Positions 42,001-48,000 of a DNA stretch of 64,000 nt are shown in pieces. A program made the position numbers. Positions within the stretch are counted from its first letter, which is position 1. Each line of letters begins with the position of its first letter. This DNA comes from Longimicrobiales bacterium (GTDB lineage Bacteria > Gemmatimonadota > Gemmatimonadetes > Longimicrobiales > Gaopeijiaceae): the NCBI GenBank assembly GCA_965204735.1, contig OZ242008.1:3328001-3392000 (forward strand), written 5' to 3'.

Positions 42001-45000
42001 CGGTCGACACAGTCCTGTGGGTCAAGGACGTGCCGACCAAGCGAGGGAAAACAGCCCGACGGTATCGGACCCCGGGCGACAGGTGCCTGAAGTCCACCCC
42101 GCGCACCCAGCACACGGCCGGGCGCGCACACACTAAGAGCAAGGAGAGAGCATCATGAACGTTTGGACCACCATCATCGACGCCACAGATGACGTTATGG
42201 CATTTGTGCTCGCCCTCAAAAGCTGGCGTCTAGGGATGCTCGTAGCCCTGGTGACCTTCGTCGCCGCATCTTTCCTCAGAGCGATGTTCCGGTTCGTCCG
42301 ATCCGTCGTCGCAGGTAGAGTTATGAGGGCGTTTTGGCCCGTCCCGTGGATAAGACAGAGCCGGGATCGACTGTCGACAGCCTATCGCACGAGATCGGGC
42401 GGATGGTGGCTTCTGAGAAGCCTAGTGCAGAAAACCAGTAGCTGGTATGGTTTATTGAAAAGCGGATGTAACAACCACAAAATGGGTTCGGTGTCGGCCC
42501 TAGGAGTCATGGCTTTTATTGCTGGTGGAGCTTTGCAGATTTCACCTAATCTGGTGTGGGCGATGAGCGGTGCAATCGTTGGAACTTTGCCGTCAAACAT
42601 CCCTTCCATCCTGTATAAGCGCATCCAACACCAGGATGGCCCACTAGGAGACACGGCCCGCCGGATTGTAGCATGGAGGACCTACTGGTTCGCTGATTGG
42701 CCGTACGTCATGACATGCGAAACATGCGGACGTAGCTATCCCAAGCGGAAGTGGAGTGCCACAGGTGGATGCGATTACTGCCAAAGGGGAACGTCAGCCG
42801 CACTAGAGTACGAATGTACGTTGCACAGCGGATTCGGCGACAAGTCGCCACACTACCCTCGCATTGGAGCTTTGCTGTGGCGTTGGGGCGTACGGCCACG
42901 TGTGAAGAAGAAGCGGCAACTTTGCCGCGACGAGATACTTCGGCAGCTCCTCTTGCTTGGGATAGTTGAAGACCACCCCGTCGACATCTTCAAACGACTG
43001 ACGCTTGCATTGGTGTTTGACGATGGTCGCGGCAGACTGCCATACCCGTGGATGAAGAATGGCCGCAGCGGGTTTCTGGTAGCTCGCATCGTTCGAGAAC
43101 ACATGGTCCAGATTGAGAATGGCGTCTACTGTGGTCGAACTATGCGTGGAGGCAAGGTGTTCGTGTTACCCAGAATCCACTTCAATCGTGAGGATAGGTT
43201 CAACGGCAACAAGGAGTTGCTTCGCTTCGAGGTGTGGACCGAAAGCGATCCGCAGCGCCACCAGTTGCCAGACGATGATGCATTCAGGCTCCTGGCCACG
43301 ATTGGGGAGGAAGAAGGAGGATGGCATCGGTATCCGGCTGACAAGGGGGATTCCGAGCCCCTTGGGCTTGACGGGGGCCCAGCCGGGGAGGAGATGTCGA
43401 GTTCGAGGAAGTGCAAGTAGATAGGTAGCTGATCGCGAAGGTATCGCGATCCGGGCAAGCTTGCGGAAGCGGCGCATCCCTGACTGACTGCTGTTGGTCA
43501 CGTAGTAGAGTTTGACGCGTGCGGCCTGCGCCTCCGGCGTGCGAAGCGGGCGGCGTACTCGGGATCCACGGCGCGGTTGCGCATGGTCGGCGGGATGTGG
43601 GTGAGGAGCCGGTGGTTGGGGTAGATGTGATTCACGAGGTCGTCTCCCGGAGAGCGGCGGCCACCGTCGCCTGCCACTGAGCTACGCGGACGAGCTTGGC
43701 GATGCGGCCCGTGGGAGCGGTCGAGTTGCGGAGGTGGACGGCGCGAGCGATGGTGTGGCGAGCCGTGGACCAGCCCCAACCGGCAACGGTTTACCGTCTC
43801 GACACTACGGATCTTCTGGATGATTGCCACGAACCGAGCCCCGGCTTCCCGTGTGGAGTCGACGTCGATGTGGTGACCGGCTGGCTCTCCGGTGCCATTG
43901 GGGGGCGAGCGGGCACCTTCGAAGATCGGAAGAGTCGGGAAAAGAGGCAGTGTGAAGCAATCTGGCCCTCCGCCTCGGAAGCGCAAGGGGGCGGCCGGGC
44001 GCGGTGTCCGTGGCGCACTCGCTGGTGTTGCCCGGTGGTCGCGAAACGGGTTATACTTGACGCTGTTCCAGTAATGCGCCACCACCTCCACCGTCCACAC
44101 CATGACACAGCCCGCCCGAGCCCAGCCTCCAGCCTCCGCCGCCACGACCGGCTACGAGGCCGAGCTGTGGAAGATGGCCGACGCCCTGCGCGGCTCGATG
44201 GACGCCGCCGAGTATAAGCATGTCGTCCTCGGGCTGATCTTCCTTAAGTACGTCTCAGACGCCTTTGAGGAGAAGCACGCCGAGCTTACGACGGACGAAC
44301 ACGCCGACCCGGAAGATGTGGACTACTACCGGGCAGAGAACATCTTCTGGGTGCCCTCCGAGGCCCGGTGGGGGAGCTTGCAGGCCAGAGCGAAGCAACC
44401 GGGCATCGGACGGCTTGTGGACGACTCGATGGCCGCCGTCGAGCGCGACAACCCGCGACTGAAGGACGTGTTGCCGAAGGACTACGCCCGTCAATCCCTG
44501 GACCAGACGCGCCTTGGGCAGATCATCGACTTGGTGAGCAACATCAGGATCGGAGACGAGGATGCCCGCTCGAAAGACGTGCTCGGTAGGGTCTACGAGT
44601 ACTTTCTCTCCCGCTTCGCCGACGCCGAGGGCAAACGTGGCGGCGAATTCTACACGCCGCGTTGCATCGTCCGCCTGCTGGTCGAGATGATCGAGCCCTT
44701 CCAAGGCCGCGTGTACGACCCCTGCTGCGGCTCGTCGGGGATGTTCGTGCAGTCCGTCGAGTTCATCCGGGCGCACCAGCAGCCGAATGGCACCGGTGAT
44801 GCGGGCGACAGCGTTGCCGGCCCGCTGGCGAGTAGGGCGGACATCTCCATCTACGGCCAGGAATCCAACTACACGACGTGGCGGCTCGCCAAGATGAACC
44901 TCGCCATTCGGGGAATTGACGGCCAGGTCGCCTATGGGGACACCTTCCACAAAAATCGCCATCCCGACCTCAAGGCCGACTACATCCTTGCTAACCCGCC

Positions 45001-48000
45001 TTTCAACGTGAGCGATTGGGGAGCCGAACGGTTGAAGGAGGACCAGCGCTGGCAGTTCGGTACGCCTCCCAAGGGCAACGCCAACTTCGCTTGGGTCCAG
45101 CATATGGTGCACCACCTGTCGCCCAAGGGGGTGGCCGGCTTCGTTCTCGCGAACGGCTCAATGAGTTCTCGCCAAAAGGCTGAAGCGGCCATCCGCCAAG
45201 GCCTAGTGGACGCGGAGCTGGTAGACTGCATGGTCGCCTTGCCGGGTCATCTCTTCTACTCGACACAGATTCCCGCATGCCTGTGGTTCCTTTCACGGAA
45301 GCGCAGTGGCAACCACCAATACCGAGACCGTCGCGGCGAAATCCTCTTCATCGACGCTCGGCGGCTTGGGCGAATGGTAGACCGCACCCACCGCGAACTC
45401 ACCGACGAAGACGTTTCCCAGATCGCCGACACATACCACGCATGGTGTAGCGACAACGGCAAGCATGCAGACGCATACGAAGATGTTCCCGGCTTCTGCA
45501 AGAGCACTTTGTTGGATGATATCCGCCATTACGACTACATGCTTACGCCGGGCCGGTACGTAGGCGTCGAGCCCAGGGAAGAAGACGATGAGCCCTTCGA
45601 GGACAAGATGCGGCGCTTGGCGGCCGAATGGCGGGCGCAAGTGGTGGAGGCCCGGCGACTGGACGCCACCATCGAAGCCAACTTGACGACACTTGGATTT
45701 CCGCCCCCGACCGATGGCACCTCCTGATGATCAGCTACGATAAATTCCAATTTTCCCTGGCGCGGCTCCAGGAGCAACATTCGAACTACGTCCGCCTCGG
45801 TCCCTCCGTGCCGGAAGCCACTCGTGACGCGTACGCAGAATCAGTGATCCAGCGGTTCGAGACCTGCTACGACTGCATGTGGAAGGTGTTGAAGCGGTAT
45901 CTGACCGATTCGCTCGGCATCCCGGACGTTCCCAACAGCCCCAAGCCGATCCTCCGTCGCGCGTTCGAGAATGACCTGCTGGACGGTCCGATGAAGCGTT
46001 GGCTAGATTACGCCCGGCATCGTGTGGGCACATCCCACGACTACAGTCTCACCAAGGCCGAAGACTGCTTGGCGATCGTCGGTAGCTTCATCGCCGACGC
46101 TGTCGCTCTTCACGAGACCCTGACCGGACACCCATGGGACCGAACAGCAACATAGACCTGACTGGCGATCAACGCCGGCTAGTGGTAGAGCTCATCAAAC
46201 GCCATCTGCCGTACACCGACGTGTGGGCCTATGGATCCCGGGTGACATGGACCTCACGACCGCAATCCGACTTGGATCTCGTGGTGTTCTGCGGCCCTGA
46301 GCAGACCGGTCAAGTCTCTGATCTGCGAGAGGCCTTTGAGGAGAGTGACCTTCCCTTCCAGGTGGACATGTTGGTTTGGGACGACCTACCGGAATCGTTT
46401 CAGAAAGAAATTGACGGGAACCACTGTCCTGTAGTCGAGATTCGTACACCCGATGGTACAGCTGAGATGCGATTCGGCGACTGTGCGACACTGATACGTG
46501 ATCACGTCGATCCTTCGGATGTTCCCGACGATACCCCATATGTTGGGCTAAGCCACATACCTAAGAATCAGCTTTTGGTACCCAACCACGGTGTAGCTGG
46601 CGATGTGACTAGCGTGAAGAGTCGCTTCAGGCGAGATGACATATTGTTCGGGGGTTTGCGACCATACTTCCGAAAGGTGGCACTAGCCCGATATGACGGA
46701 ATTTGCTCAACGGATATCTGGGTCGTCCGTGCACAAAATGGACTAGATCACCAATTCCTGTTCTACCAAATGGCTACACAGCACTTTGCCGACTATGCGT
46801 CCCAGGGCTCGGAAGGTACCAAGATGCCGCGGGCAAAATGGGACCACGTGTCTGAGTACCGTCTTAACATCCCGTGTCTTGATGATCAACGACGCGTTGC
46901 GAGGATCCTCGGTGAAATAGACGACAAGATACAACTAAATCACAAAATGGCCCTCACGCTTGAACAGATGGTAGATGCTGTGTATAGTGAGTGGATTGGT
47001 TCGGTTGGGAAACGTCCTTGGTTGCCGAACGGATGGAAAACTACTACAATCGGTCATTGCTACGCAATAACAATGGGCCAATCGCCTTCCGGTTATACAT
47101 ATAACACACAAGGTGAAGGTCATCCATTCTTGCAAGGAAGTGCTGAATTTGATTTTCGCTTCCCGAGATTCCGAAGATGCTGTACGTACCCTCTTCGCGT
47201 GGCACCAAGGGATCATACTCTATTGAGTGTCCGTGCACCCGTAGGCGACGTAAACATGGCGTCAACGGAGAGTTGTATAGGCAGGGGCGTTGCGGGCGTA
47301 GTCCACAAATCTGGCGCAACATCATACACCTACCATCGTTTTCGGGCCTTGCAGGCCACACTCCGGCGGTATGGCGAGGGAACTGTTTTTGGTGCCATTA
47401 CGAAGAGGCAACTCGCGAATCTACCTATCGTAGAGCCGCCACGCCAGACTATTGACATGTTCGAGTCACTGGCTAGGCCAATGGACGACCTCGTTAGATC
47501 CTATACTAGCGAGTTACGGCTTTTAGAAATCGTTCGAGATCAACTGCTTTCACGGCTACTGGTATAGCCGAGCCGAAACTGGGATCTTGAGCTTGATTCG
47601 CCTTGGAAGTGAGGACTGGGAATCCGACCGAGTCATCGGGAATGCAAGATGATGGCTAGAAAGGCGAACGGCCGAGCGAACGGCGAGCCTACGACGGCGA
47701 CCTTCAAGGAGATTACTCAGCTAACTCATGAAGAAGCGCTCGAATATTTCTTGAAGTCTACCAGCTACTGCACCCTAAACCTCCCTCCATACATTACTTT
47801 TGATCGACTACTGAGCGACATCAGCCGACTTATCGGGTCAAAGCGATTGAGTGATTTCGGATCAGGTGCCAACGATCACACCACCAGTCATACCATTTAT
47901 GTAGGCAGAGATGGCAGGTACACATGGCGTCCGCTTGAGCTCGTGCACCCAGCCTTGTATGTATACCTCGTGCACTTAGTGACAAGCAAGAACAACTGGA

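Follow-up and report, generated by a model that had tools for sequence, protein, structure and literature searches.

A 64,000-nt stretch of the genome of a Longimicrobiales bacterium (hereafter, the window) contains a type I restriction-modification (R-M) operon in which the specificity gene encodes a 477-aa fusion protein: a complete minimal nucleotidyltransferase (MNT) of the Pol-beta superfamily, followed by a full type I HsdS with two target-recognition domains (TRDs). The gene immediately before it encodes a small HEPN protein, a predicted RNase toxin. We interpret this as a class I HEPN/MNT pair (type VII-like, of the HI0074/HI0073 subtype) built into the R-M operon, in which the N-terminal domain of HsdS would be the antitoxin that silences the HEPN RNase, and we assign this interpretation a probability of roughly 0.55. 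HEPN/MNT toxin-antitoxin pairs are already known, but our literature search found no published description of a HEPN gene accompanied by an MNT::HsdS fusion.

Results

The first three genes of the operon, all on the forward strand, follow the order given in the initial annotation: hsdM (44102..45727), encoding a 541-aa methyltransferase subunit (N6_Mtase, E 2.8e-103; HsdM_N, E 7.2e-25; PADLOC MTase_I PDLC03019, E 2.5e-212), the 142-aa HEPN gene (45727..46155), and the fusion gene (46134..47567). The stop codon of hsdM shares one base with the start codon of the HEPN gene (TGATG), and since the HEPN stop codon occupies 46153-46155, while the ATG of the fusion lies at 46134, the 22-nt overlap reported earlier can be read directly from the sequence. 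Both of these start codons are backed by homologue alignments; the HEPN protein begins with MISYDKF, which matches MI[DE]Y.KF in 30 homologues. The three genes are translationally coupled and form one message. The hsd partners of the fusion are the hsdM directly upstream and an intact hsdR of 1184 aa (56127..59681, forward strand; PADLOC REase_I PDLC03040, E 0; HSDR_N, SWI2_SNF2 and T1RH-like_C; TIGR00348, 553 bits), which follows hsdS at a distance of 8.5 kb.

The interval between hsdS and hsdR carries cargo, including the two neighbors that had been named previously and that PADLOC recovered here: an AbiP2-type defense reverse transcriptase (47649..49199, forward strand; AbiP2, E 2.9e-175; RVT_1, E 1.5e-11), located in a stretch of low G+C content (0.475-0.51), and a PDC-S01 ATPase with AAA_14 and DUF4143 domains on the opposite strand (54627..55862; PDC-S01, E 6.1e-145). 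A STAND-like gene is also part of this cargo. Downstream of the PDC-S01 gene, on the reverse strand within 50461-54600, a large ORF encodes a GAGKT Walker A motif; its 1872-aa frame matched no Pfam and no PADLOC family. An internal fragment of an hsdR copy (49837..50359, forward strand) is 90-95% identical to 56659-57611, as seen in repeat families D1-D5 and in ORF translations.

The composition of the fusion protein emerged consistently from Pfam, PADLOC, matches to solved structures and a structure model, in agreement with what the initial annotation had proposed for both of its halves. The MNT part (46134..46418) is covered by Polbeta (30.9 bits, cut-off 26.9) and NTP_transf_2 (22.0 bits, cut-off 21) at residues 19-99, and it carries the expected motif G34-S35-x10-D46-L47-D48, together with a third acidic residue, D78. 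Its best solved relative is HI0073 (1no5), which matches residues 6-93 with an E of 5.3e-12 by sequence and which Foldseek also retrieved (1no5_A; TM-score on target 0.69, 36% identity). The HsdS proper (46461..47567) matches Methylase_S (E 3.2e-12) and, over residues 104-438, the HsdS structure 3okg (E 1.9e-40), with Foldseek placing it beside 3okg, 5ybb and 7vru (E 1e-29 to 1e-24); PADLOC Specificity_I PDLC03138 spans residues 7-476 (E 5.9e-62). In the model, the first TRD (residues ~110-248) and the second (~300-436) are followed by a central helix (249-287) and a C-terminal helix (437-476), respectively, both of which are conserved helices. The MNT is predicted to be joined to the first TRD by a flexible linker of ~14 residues (96-109; 46419..46460), where the two 10-residue blocks of the zone 91-110 have a mean pLDDT of 63 and 60, with well-predicted domains on either side, and where the aligned homologues vary.

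For the HEPN protein, the NTase_sub_bind match in the initial annotation was recovered (PF08780, E 3.8e-19; 69.4 bits, cut-off 31.8, as computed on a longer 175-aa frame of the gene). The closest solved structure is HI0074 (1jog, E 1.5e-8, by sequence), the L. pneumophila structure deposited as ‘HEPN toxin’ (8xdj) matches with an E of 3.4e-4, and the NCBIfam HI0074 family TIGR01987 reaches 54.8 bits against a cut-off of 55.8. An RNase-type motif is present, as had been claimed, although its earlier form, R-x6-H, was miscounted from the nonconserved R97; the conserved form is Rx4HxY, R99-V-G-T-S-H104-D-Y106 (46021..46044), in which R99, T102, H104 and Y106 are invariant across 31/31 aligned homologues. 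The tyrosine of this motif is reported as the AMPylation acceptor in characterized relatives (PMC11586414). According to the same source, catalysis in the L. pneumophila protein does not reside in R98 and H103 of this motif, and a Q44/E47-Mg site is put forward as the active site instead; thus, the conserved motif alone is no proof of RNase activity; the equivalents of Q44 and E47 are retained in the window protein as Q42 and E45.

Class I HEPN/MNT pairs were defined by Yao et al. in 2020 as PF01934 or PF08780 beside PF01909, with the motifs RX4HXY and GSX10DXD (PMC7641770), and the window pair falls within this operational definition through its PF08780 match, its R99-x4-H104-x-Y106 and its overlapping, adjacent genes. 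The earlier designation as HepT/MNT stands to this extent, but it does not carry over to the HepT and MntA families themselves: the HEPN protein gave no Pfam match to PF01934 (HepT-like) at E <= 0.01, and the MntA equivalog NF047752 scored 28 bits in the window against a cut-off of 60. Judged from its sequences, the pair is strictly of the HI0074/HI0073 type. The Zymomonas mobilis homologue of the HEPN protein does reach PF01934, at 37.9 bits.

The module recurs in many phyla, as had been suggested, in both homologue and species-genome searches. In a length-restricted search, Methylase_S was present in 114 of the 120 best matches (counted from the listing). Species genomes yielded 482 matching stretches, 80 of which were kept as loci, and fusions made up 77 of these 80. 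A HEPN gene lies directly upstream on the same strand at 71 of the 77 fusion loci, a stronger association than the 30/43 reported previously, with an identical 10-nt overlap at 54 of the 71. GSx10DxD is retained in 75/77 fused MNTs and Rx4HxY in 74/82 HEPN matches from the 80 loci, four of the eight exceptions being truncated fragments. With the MNT domain alone as the query, an HsdS part is present in 127 of the 150 best representatives (50%-identity clusters). Insertions exceed 600 nt between hsdM and the HEPN gene in 20/65 loci and 300 nt between hsdS and hsdR in 43/50, whereas none separates HEPN from MNT in 71/71 loci (domain gap <=134 nt), and no intact HEPN gene without an adjacent MNT occurs among the 80 sampled loci. 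An unfused intermediate exists on plasmid pSH1 of Acetobacter pomorum, where hsdM, HEPN and MNT are followed by a separate hsdS. Five of the 77 fusions (L013, L025, L026, L036 and L063) lack a HEPN gene within 7 kb; the MNT of L013 is truncated, and the other four retain the catalytic motif. The slot of the HEPN gene is filled by an accessory gene in two of the five, Fic in L025 and a Schlafen/AlbA_2 ATPase in L036. Such loci may reflect recent loss of the HEPN gene, or else the fused MNT may do more than neutralize this HEPN protein.

Discussion

If the pair works as the characterized free pairs do, the nucleotidyltransferase borne by HsdS would silence the HEPN RNase by AMPylating Tyr106, by binding the RNase, or both. 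The health of the cell would then depend on the continued synthesis of HsdS-MNT, and the RNase would be positioned on or beside the M2S/R2M2S complex. The sequences themselves establish the gene and domain layout, the motifs, the fusion, its broad recurrence and a HEPN-MNT linkage that no insertion breaks; that the RNase is toxic, is AMPylated by the fused domain, joins the R-M complex and is released by some trigger is what we infer.

Among characterized systems, those most similar to this pair are free two-gene modules. In L. pneumophila, HEPN lpg2920 and MNT lpg2921, whose genes overlap by 8 bp, are experimentally a toxin and its antitoxin, and the MNT, which lacks helix alpha-4, poly-AMPylates Y105 (PMC11586414). 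This type VII pair resembles ours in its HI0074-like HEPN protein with RX4HXY, its short MNT without alpha-4 and its overlapping genes, but its MNT stands alone, and the sections of that paper available to us report no R-M context for it. A free pair of L. adelaidensis also has the HEPN gene first. H. influenzae HI0073 and HI0074 provide the best solved-structure matches for both halves (1no5 and 1jog), although they are two separate small proteins and were initially read as a two-subunit nucleotidyltransferase. The founding type VII pair, HepT/MntA of S. oneidensis (SO_3166/SO_3165), also experimentally toxin-antitoxin, shares RX4HXY and GSX10DXD and fits the class I definition that covers PF08780; its HepT, however, is of DUF86/PF01934, and its MntA, which precedes HepT in gene order, possesses helix alpha-4 (PMC7641770). 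Fused MNT-HEPN proteins (FhepTA), which are controlled by oligoAMPylation and other layers (PMC13000451), likewise place the antitoxin domain covalently on another polypeptide, but in FhepTA the fusion partner of the MNT is its own toxin, whereas in the window it is the DNA-recognition subunit of another defense system.

With respect to the R-M context, the closest precedent is PrrC-EcoprrI, an anticodon nuclease latent on a type Ic R-M complex, which is also a HEPN RNase inside a type I hsd operon and in whose proposed logic the R-M proteins keep the RNase silent (PMC3710099, PMC3506569). PrrC, however, combines an ABC ATPase with a HEPN nuclease, attaches to the complex noncovalently and has no MNT; in the window, the putative silencing role falls to a domain of HsdS. 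We rejected a PrrC-type nuclease as an identification, given that the HEPN protein, at 142 aa, has a single NTase_sub_bind domain and no N-terminal ABC ATPase. Extra defense genes between hsd genes are also known from ‘guilt-by-embedding’ in type I R-M operons, but these are separate cassettes, and the main text of that study contains no MNT, nucleotidyltransferase or HsdS (bioRxiv 10.1101/2024.01.29.577857).

One alternative, which we consider unlikely, is that the HEPN/MNT pair only stabilizes the operon or a plasmid, with no phage defense and no sensing of R-M, and that an antitoxin inside hsdS turns an otherwise freely losable type I system into an addictive one. Free HEPN/MNT pairs were originally proposed as mobile, addiction-like modules (PMC2701414), and the module does occur on plasmids, being carried by pZMOB01 of Z. 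mobilis and, in unfused form, by pSH1 of Acetobacter pomorum. It is also patchy among relatives, with 5/40 related genomes having it (3/3 of the same genus and 0/16 from other families of the order). Further, the HEPN-MNT linkage is tight. For addiction, however, adjacency would suffice, yet the fused form far outnumbers its unfused neighbors among the nearest MNT relatives (127 of 150). Most examples are, moreover, chromosomal and surrounded by defense genes.

Somewhat less probable still is a neutral fusion, in which an ordinary pair nested upstream of hsdS lost the stop codon of its MNT and the two halves remain independent. On pSH1, only 2 nt lie between the MNT stop codon and the start of hsdS, an arrangement that the loss of one stop codon could plausibly fuse; type I operons are known to host nested defense genes (bioRxiv 10.1101/2024.01.29.577857), and the linker is predicted to be flexible and varies. 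An accident, however, would be expected to revert or remain rare, while the fusion has persisted in many phyla, through TRD swaps, with the MNT 54-78% identical among homologues and the TRDs free to vary; species genomes held 482 matching stretches, and architectures with two tandem MNT domains on HsdS exist as well. Finally, the original HI0073/HI0074 proposal, in which the HEPN protein would be a substrate-binding subunit and the HsdS-borne enzyme would nucleotidylate some other target, for example DNA, a phage component or a subunit of the R-M enzyme, and so regulate restriction, is echoed in the names NTase_sub_bind and ‘HI0074 family nucleotidyltransferase substrate-binding subunit’, in the catalytic motif kept by four of the five HEPN-less fusions and in a suggestion that the L. 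pneumophila Rx4HxY residues may aid ATP binding (PMC11586414), but it seems improbable, given that the characterized class I pairs in the cited papers are all reported as an RNase toxin with an AMPylating antitoxin (PMC7641770, PMC11586414, PMC13000451) and that the acceptor tyrosine is invariant.

For a HEPN/MNT pair whose antitoxin is part of HsdS, the initial annotation had proposed that the RNase would be set free once the restriction complex is lost or blocked, a hard-wired version of the PrrC-EcoprrI principle; this mechanism is a hypothesis. A catalytic antitoxin marks its toxin covalently, and HsdS is not known to be labile; a tethered antitoxin is therefore not enough to account for the release and activation of the RNase. 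The arrangement may couple the restriction complex to a suicide RNase. Under this toxin-antitoxin interpretation, loss or truncation of hsdS, and hence of the whole R-M system, would release the RNase; placed on or beside the complex, the RNase could also serve as a second, abortive-infection line once the R-M complex has been disabled.

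Results

The type I restriction-modification (R-M) operon in the window encodes, all on the forward strand, a 541-aa HsdM (44102-45727; N6_Mtase E 2.8e-103, HsdM_N E 7.2e-25, PADLOC MTase_I E 2.5e-212), a 142-aa HEPN protein of the NTase_sub_bind/HI0074 kind (45727-46155; PF08780 E 3.8e-19), and a 477-aa protein (46134-47567) in which Pfam recognizes both a minimal nucleotidyltransferase (MNT; Polbeta and NTP_transf_2, residues 19-99) and an HsdS specificity subunit (Methylase_S). The hsdM/HEPN junction reads TGATG, the HEPN stop overlaps the start of the fusion by 22 nt, and the HEPN and fusion starts are both consistent with the homologue alignments. 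Residues 6-93 of the fusion match HI0073 (1no5, E 5.3e-12), the nucleotidyltransferase partner of HI0074, and the HsdS of 3okg/5ybb aligns with residues 104-438 (E about 2e-40). The PADLOC Specificity_I profile PDLC03138 aligned to residues 7-476, and thus already includes the nucleotidyltransferase part.

The HEPN protein matches PDB 1jog (E 1.5e-8) and the “HEPN toxin” chain 8xdj (E 3.4e-4), and its NCBIfam TIGR01987 score, 54.8 bits, lies one bit below the cut-off. A strict HepT (DUF86) assignment was rejected for this protein on the Pfam PF08780 match and the NCBIfam scores. The motif of the initial annotation, R-x6-H, had been counted from the non-conserved R97; the conserved motif is R99-x4-H104-x-Y106 (RVGTSHDY, 46021-46044), with R99, T102, H104, and Y106 invariant in all 31 aligned sequences. 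Further, Q42, mostly conserved, and E45, nearly invariant (at least 90% of aligned sequences), are the counterparts of the Q/E pair put forward as a metal site in a Legionella study. The MNT motif is G34-S35-x10-D46-L47-D48, plus D78.

An AlphaFold2 model of the fusion, built on 24 homologues (pLDDT 84.8, pTM 0.73), predicts a compact MNT (helices 11-24, 55-70, and 87-95; strands 29-33, 47-52, and 77-81) that would lack a long C-terminal helix, a low-confidence linker at residues about 96-109, and a complete HsdS, with TRD1, helix 249-287, TRD2, and helix 437-476. In Foldseek searches with this model, HsdS structures ranked first, and the N-terminal part retrieved HI0073 (1no5_A; TM-score on target 0.69, 36% identity). 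Origin of the fusion as a frameshift or read-through artefact was rejected, given the single open frame, the two-part model with a pLDDT of 84.8, and hundreds of collinear homologues. A complex prediction for two HEPN copies (with the HEPN alignment, A2) and MNT residues 1-110 (with the alignment of fusion homologues, A1), run without controls, gave scores of 0.01 and 0.00, where the mark was 0.32, and speaks neither way on binding.

The earlier claim that the module is not a one-off held up, as homologous fusions emerged from protein, cluster, and species-genome searches, across many phyla. Specifically, a protein search scored on fusion residues 1-125 and limited to proteins of 262-835 aa returned 1095 proteins at E <= 0.001; among the best 120, as counted from the listing, 114 carry Methylase_S and 112 carry a nucleotidyltransferase family with it. 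A length-free HMMER search with the 109-aa MNT part against 1.84 billion cluster representatives gave 2863 matches at E <= 0.001 and 871 at E <= 1e-10, and thus a large family, with an HsdS-like part following the MNT in 127 of the best 150; 13 of the other 23 are no longer than 160 aa and may be free MNTs or fragments. Finally, in a species sample with one genome each, two MNT peptide patterns picked out 494 stretches (482 confirmed), and the best 80 loci were fetched. MNT and an HsdS-like match share a single ORF in 77 of these 80 (exceptions L069, L074, and L076), a biased rate because the loci were ranked by likeness to the whole fusion, so that the length-free search provides the better estimate.

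By title, the 80 loci come from Longimicrobiales, Alpha-, Gamma-, and Zetaproteobacteria, Rhodothermales, Nitrospirales, Poribacteria, three acidobacterial orders, Opitutales, Latescibacterota, Planctomycetaceae, spirochaetes, Roizmanbacteria, Nitrospinia, and Maridesulfovibrio, which we take to be a dozen or so phyla; several of these lineages are known from sponges. At E <= 1e-10, five of 40 genomes related to that of the window have the MNT (3/3 in the same genus, 2/21 in other genera of the family, and 0/16 in other families of the order), a patchy, mobile-looking distribution. Some homologues have further domains. Five HsdS fusions in A1 (P0013, P0023, P0032, P0067, and P0007) carry two tandem nucleotidyltransferase domains, with a second, divergent MNT ahead of the conserved one or a further MNT behind it. 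DUF559 (PF04480, a Vsr-like endonuclease) and PF18741 occur in the longer fusions P0008, P0092-P0094, P0098, P0103, and P0106; in P0106, the only one of this group in A1, they interrupt the conserved middle region of HsdS.

An iterated HEPN profile detected 82 HEPN ORFs in the 80 loci. In 71 of the 77 fusion loci, a HEPN gene on the same strand ends at the MNT start, 54 of them with an identical 10-nt overlap, which upholds the initial annotation's placement of the toxin gene directly upstream of the fusion. In L068, the order is HEPN, a further MNT, and then MNT::HsdS. The Rx4HxY motif is present in 74 of the 82 HEPN matches; of the eight without it, four are truncated. GSx10DxD is present in 75 of the 77 fused MNTs, the other two having a 2-residue insertion and a truncation, respectively.

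For five fusions (L013, L025, L026, L036, and L063), no HEPN gene lies within 7 kb. Between hsdM and MNT::hsdS, the slot holds a Fic/DOC gene in L025 and a Schlafen/AlbA_2 ATPase in L036, and the slot ORFs upstream of the fusion in L026 and L063 match no Pfam family; various accessory genes thus appear to take the same position. L013 itself has a truncated MNT, with an AAA-ATPase/PD-(D/E)XK gene upstream of it. Interruptions longer than 600 nt separate hsdM from HEPN in 20 of 65 loci, and interruptions longer than 300 nt separate hsdS from hsdR in 43 of 50, whereas the HEPN-MNT junction is uninterrupted, with a domain gap of at most 134 nt in all 71 loci. As this junction alone is never broken, HEPN and MNT::hsdS form an inseparable unit in an otherwise cargo-accepting operon.

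In eight loci (L003, L012, L041, L048, L052, L057, L068, and L075), an extra HEPN-MNT pair stands free, either immediately before the HEPN-MNT::hsdS unit or at another place in that operon; the pair is of a sister type, and its MNT reads GSRVNGRSH.GSDLDL, with E rather than D at the third acidic site. The window's own genome has a second, distant pair on the reverse strand (L082; G000:C1:3127694-3128367), likewise HEPN-first, with 29% identity in the HEPN and 40% in the MNT.

Plasmids of named, culturable bacteria provided examples of three arrangements. In Zymomonas mobilis ATCC 10988, pZMOB01 carries a compact operon of four genes that spans the record origin: hsdM (30878-32470), an “HI0074 family” gene (3-392), a 527-aa “restriction endonuclease subunit S” (389-1972) with Polbeta, NTP_transf_2, and Methylase_S, and hsdR (1969-5154). 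The unfused counterpart on Acetobacter pomorum pSH1 consists of hsdM, HEPN, a 101-aa MNT, and an hsdS that starts 2 nt past the MNT stop, and in Legionella adelaidensis, the HEPN-then-MNT pair on plasmid 9 is free and lies away from R-M loci. Since the free and the unfused pairs share the HEPN-first order, we rejected it as fusion-specific; it is a trait of the sub-type.

In the window, cargo has opened the operon at hsdS-hsdR, the junction also variable in other genomes. Behind hsdS lies a low-G+C gene for an AbiP2 reverse transcriptase, just downstream of which a 0.5-kb internal fragment of hsdR (49837-50359) is 90-95% identical to 56659-57611 and has the look of a scar left when recombination introduced the cargo. 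Next come, on the reverse strand, a large NTPase-like ORF (within 50461-54600; Walker A GDPGAGKT) that matches no Pfam or PADLOC family and, upstream of it, a PDC-S01 ATPase gene (54627-55862); the 1872-aa frame of the large ORF overlaps the PDC-S01 gene, its 5' end probably being set too far upstream. The hsdR gene itself (56127-59681) is intact although 8.5 kb from hsdS, so that the R-M system may still work.

G+C is 0.475-0.51 across the last part of hsdS and the AbiP2 gene (47000-49000) versus 0.65-0.70 around them, which suggests recently acquired DNA. Between its nuclease and motor domains, HsdR contains an insert (residues about 275-445; about 56950-57460) with weak Peptidase_S24 (LexA-like) similarity (E 2.4e-4; 21.2 bits, below the 23.3-bit cut-off); it is rare, as only two or three of 53 related loci with hsdR cover the segment, and the 49837-50359 duplication takes in part of it. 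A 421-aa ORF at 42155-43420, in lower-G+C DNA (0.57), matches no Pfam or PADLOC family.

Discussion

The component parts and the general logic of this module are already known. PrrC-EcoprrI has been documented, as have HEPN genes within R-M operons and the nesting of defence genes inside type I operons (PMC3710099, PMC3506569, bioRxiv 10.1101/2024.01.29.577857), and Anantharaman et al. (PMC3710099) described fusions of R-M-associated HEPN domains to nucleases, helicases, and ATPases “but not to the methylases”. In the main text of that 2013 paper, “HsdS”, “specificity subunit”, and “S subunit” are absent, and the sole “specificity” refers to RNase III; MNT-HsdS was not found there, although the architecture list in its Additional file 1, which lay outside the search, may contain it. 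Nor was a description of MNT-HsdS found in the accessible text of PMC3632139, PMC3506569, PMC2701414, PMC4621449, PMC12839542, PMC8649781, or bioRxiv 10.1101/2024.01.29.577857, or by full-text literature searches, which covered neither REBASE nor most subscription journals. It thus appears that neither the covalent joining of the antitoxin to the specificity subunit nor the abundance of this arrangement has been reported. The fusion is hidden by the annotation “restriction endonuclease subunit S”, and has even been absorbed into a PADLOC profile.

Free class I HEPN/MNT pairs are type VII toxin-antitoxin systems, and in Shewanella oneidensis the MNT AMPylates the RX4HXY tyrosine and thereby blocks the RNase (PMC7641770). 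In the nearest studied pair, Legionella pneumophila lpg2920/lpg2921, a short MNT without helix alpha-4 binds a HEPN tetramer and poly-AMPylates Y105 (PMC11586414). By homology with such pairs, the HsdS-borne MNT probably acts on the 142-aa HEPN in the same way, by AMPylation and RNase block (probability roughly 0.7). The antitoxin of an RNase toxin would then be a domain of HsdS, the subunit that nucleates the R-M complex.

We favour a dual effect of the fusion. First, loss or truncation of hsdS would release the toxin, so that hsdS would be kept; under a purely addictive alternative, the HEPN/MNT pair would be an addiction device only. Second, the RNase would be held at the R-M complex, where it could act as a backup, although a specifically PrrC-like version of this backup, as the initial annotation had it, seems to us rather unlikely. 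The fusion might instead be neutral, the outcome of MNT stop-codon loss. A plausible path runs from a free pair (L. adelaidensis) through a nested pair (A. pomorum) to the fusion (Z. mobilis), and these free, nested unfused, and fused forms constitute a natural series for asking what fusion adds. Lastly, HEPN and MNT could make up a two-protein nucleotidyltransferase with another substrate.

To return to an MNT that AMPylates HEPN, its covalent product is a real difficulty for the initial annotation's wording, in which loss or blocking of the restriction complex should free the RNase. HsdS is not known to be unstable, and with a covalent AMPylation, release would therefore need an extra step: new unmodified toxin, AMP removal, ATP depletion, or loss of the MNT domain could each supply it. 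Such extra layers of control have been invoked for fused MNT-HEPN proteins (PMC13000451).

The coupling of immunity by R-M with suicide or dormancy modules is a long-standing question, of which PrrC-EcoprrI is almost the only worked example known to us; in the fusion, the coupling would be written into a polypeptide. More tentatively, the type I complex could be an antitoxin platform: the MNT on HsdS would carry the HEPN oligomer on M2S/R2M2S and keep it AMPylated, and removal, blockage, or distortion of HsdS would end neutralisation and unleash the RNase, with phage anti-restriction proteins, operon loss, and engagement with unmodified DNA as candidate triggers. Z. mobilis is culturable and genetically tractable, and its compact four-gene plasmid operon makes the hypothesis directly testable. 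If true, this antitoxin platform would amount to a covalently hard-wired switch from restriction to abortive infection, in at least several hundred bacterial species.
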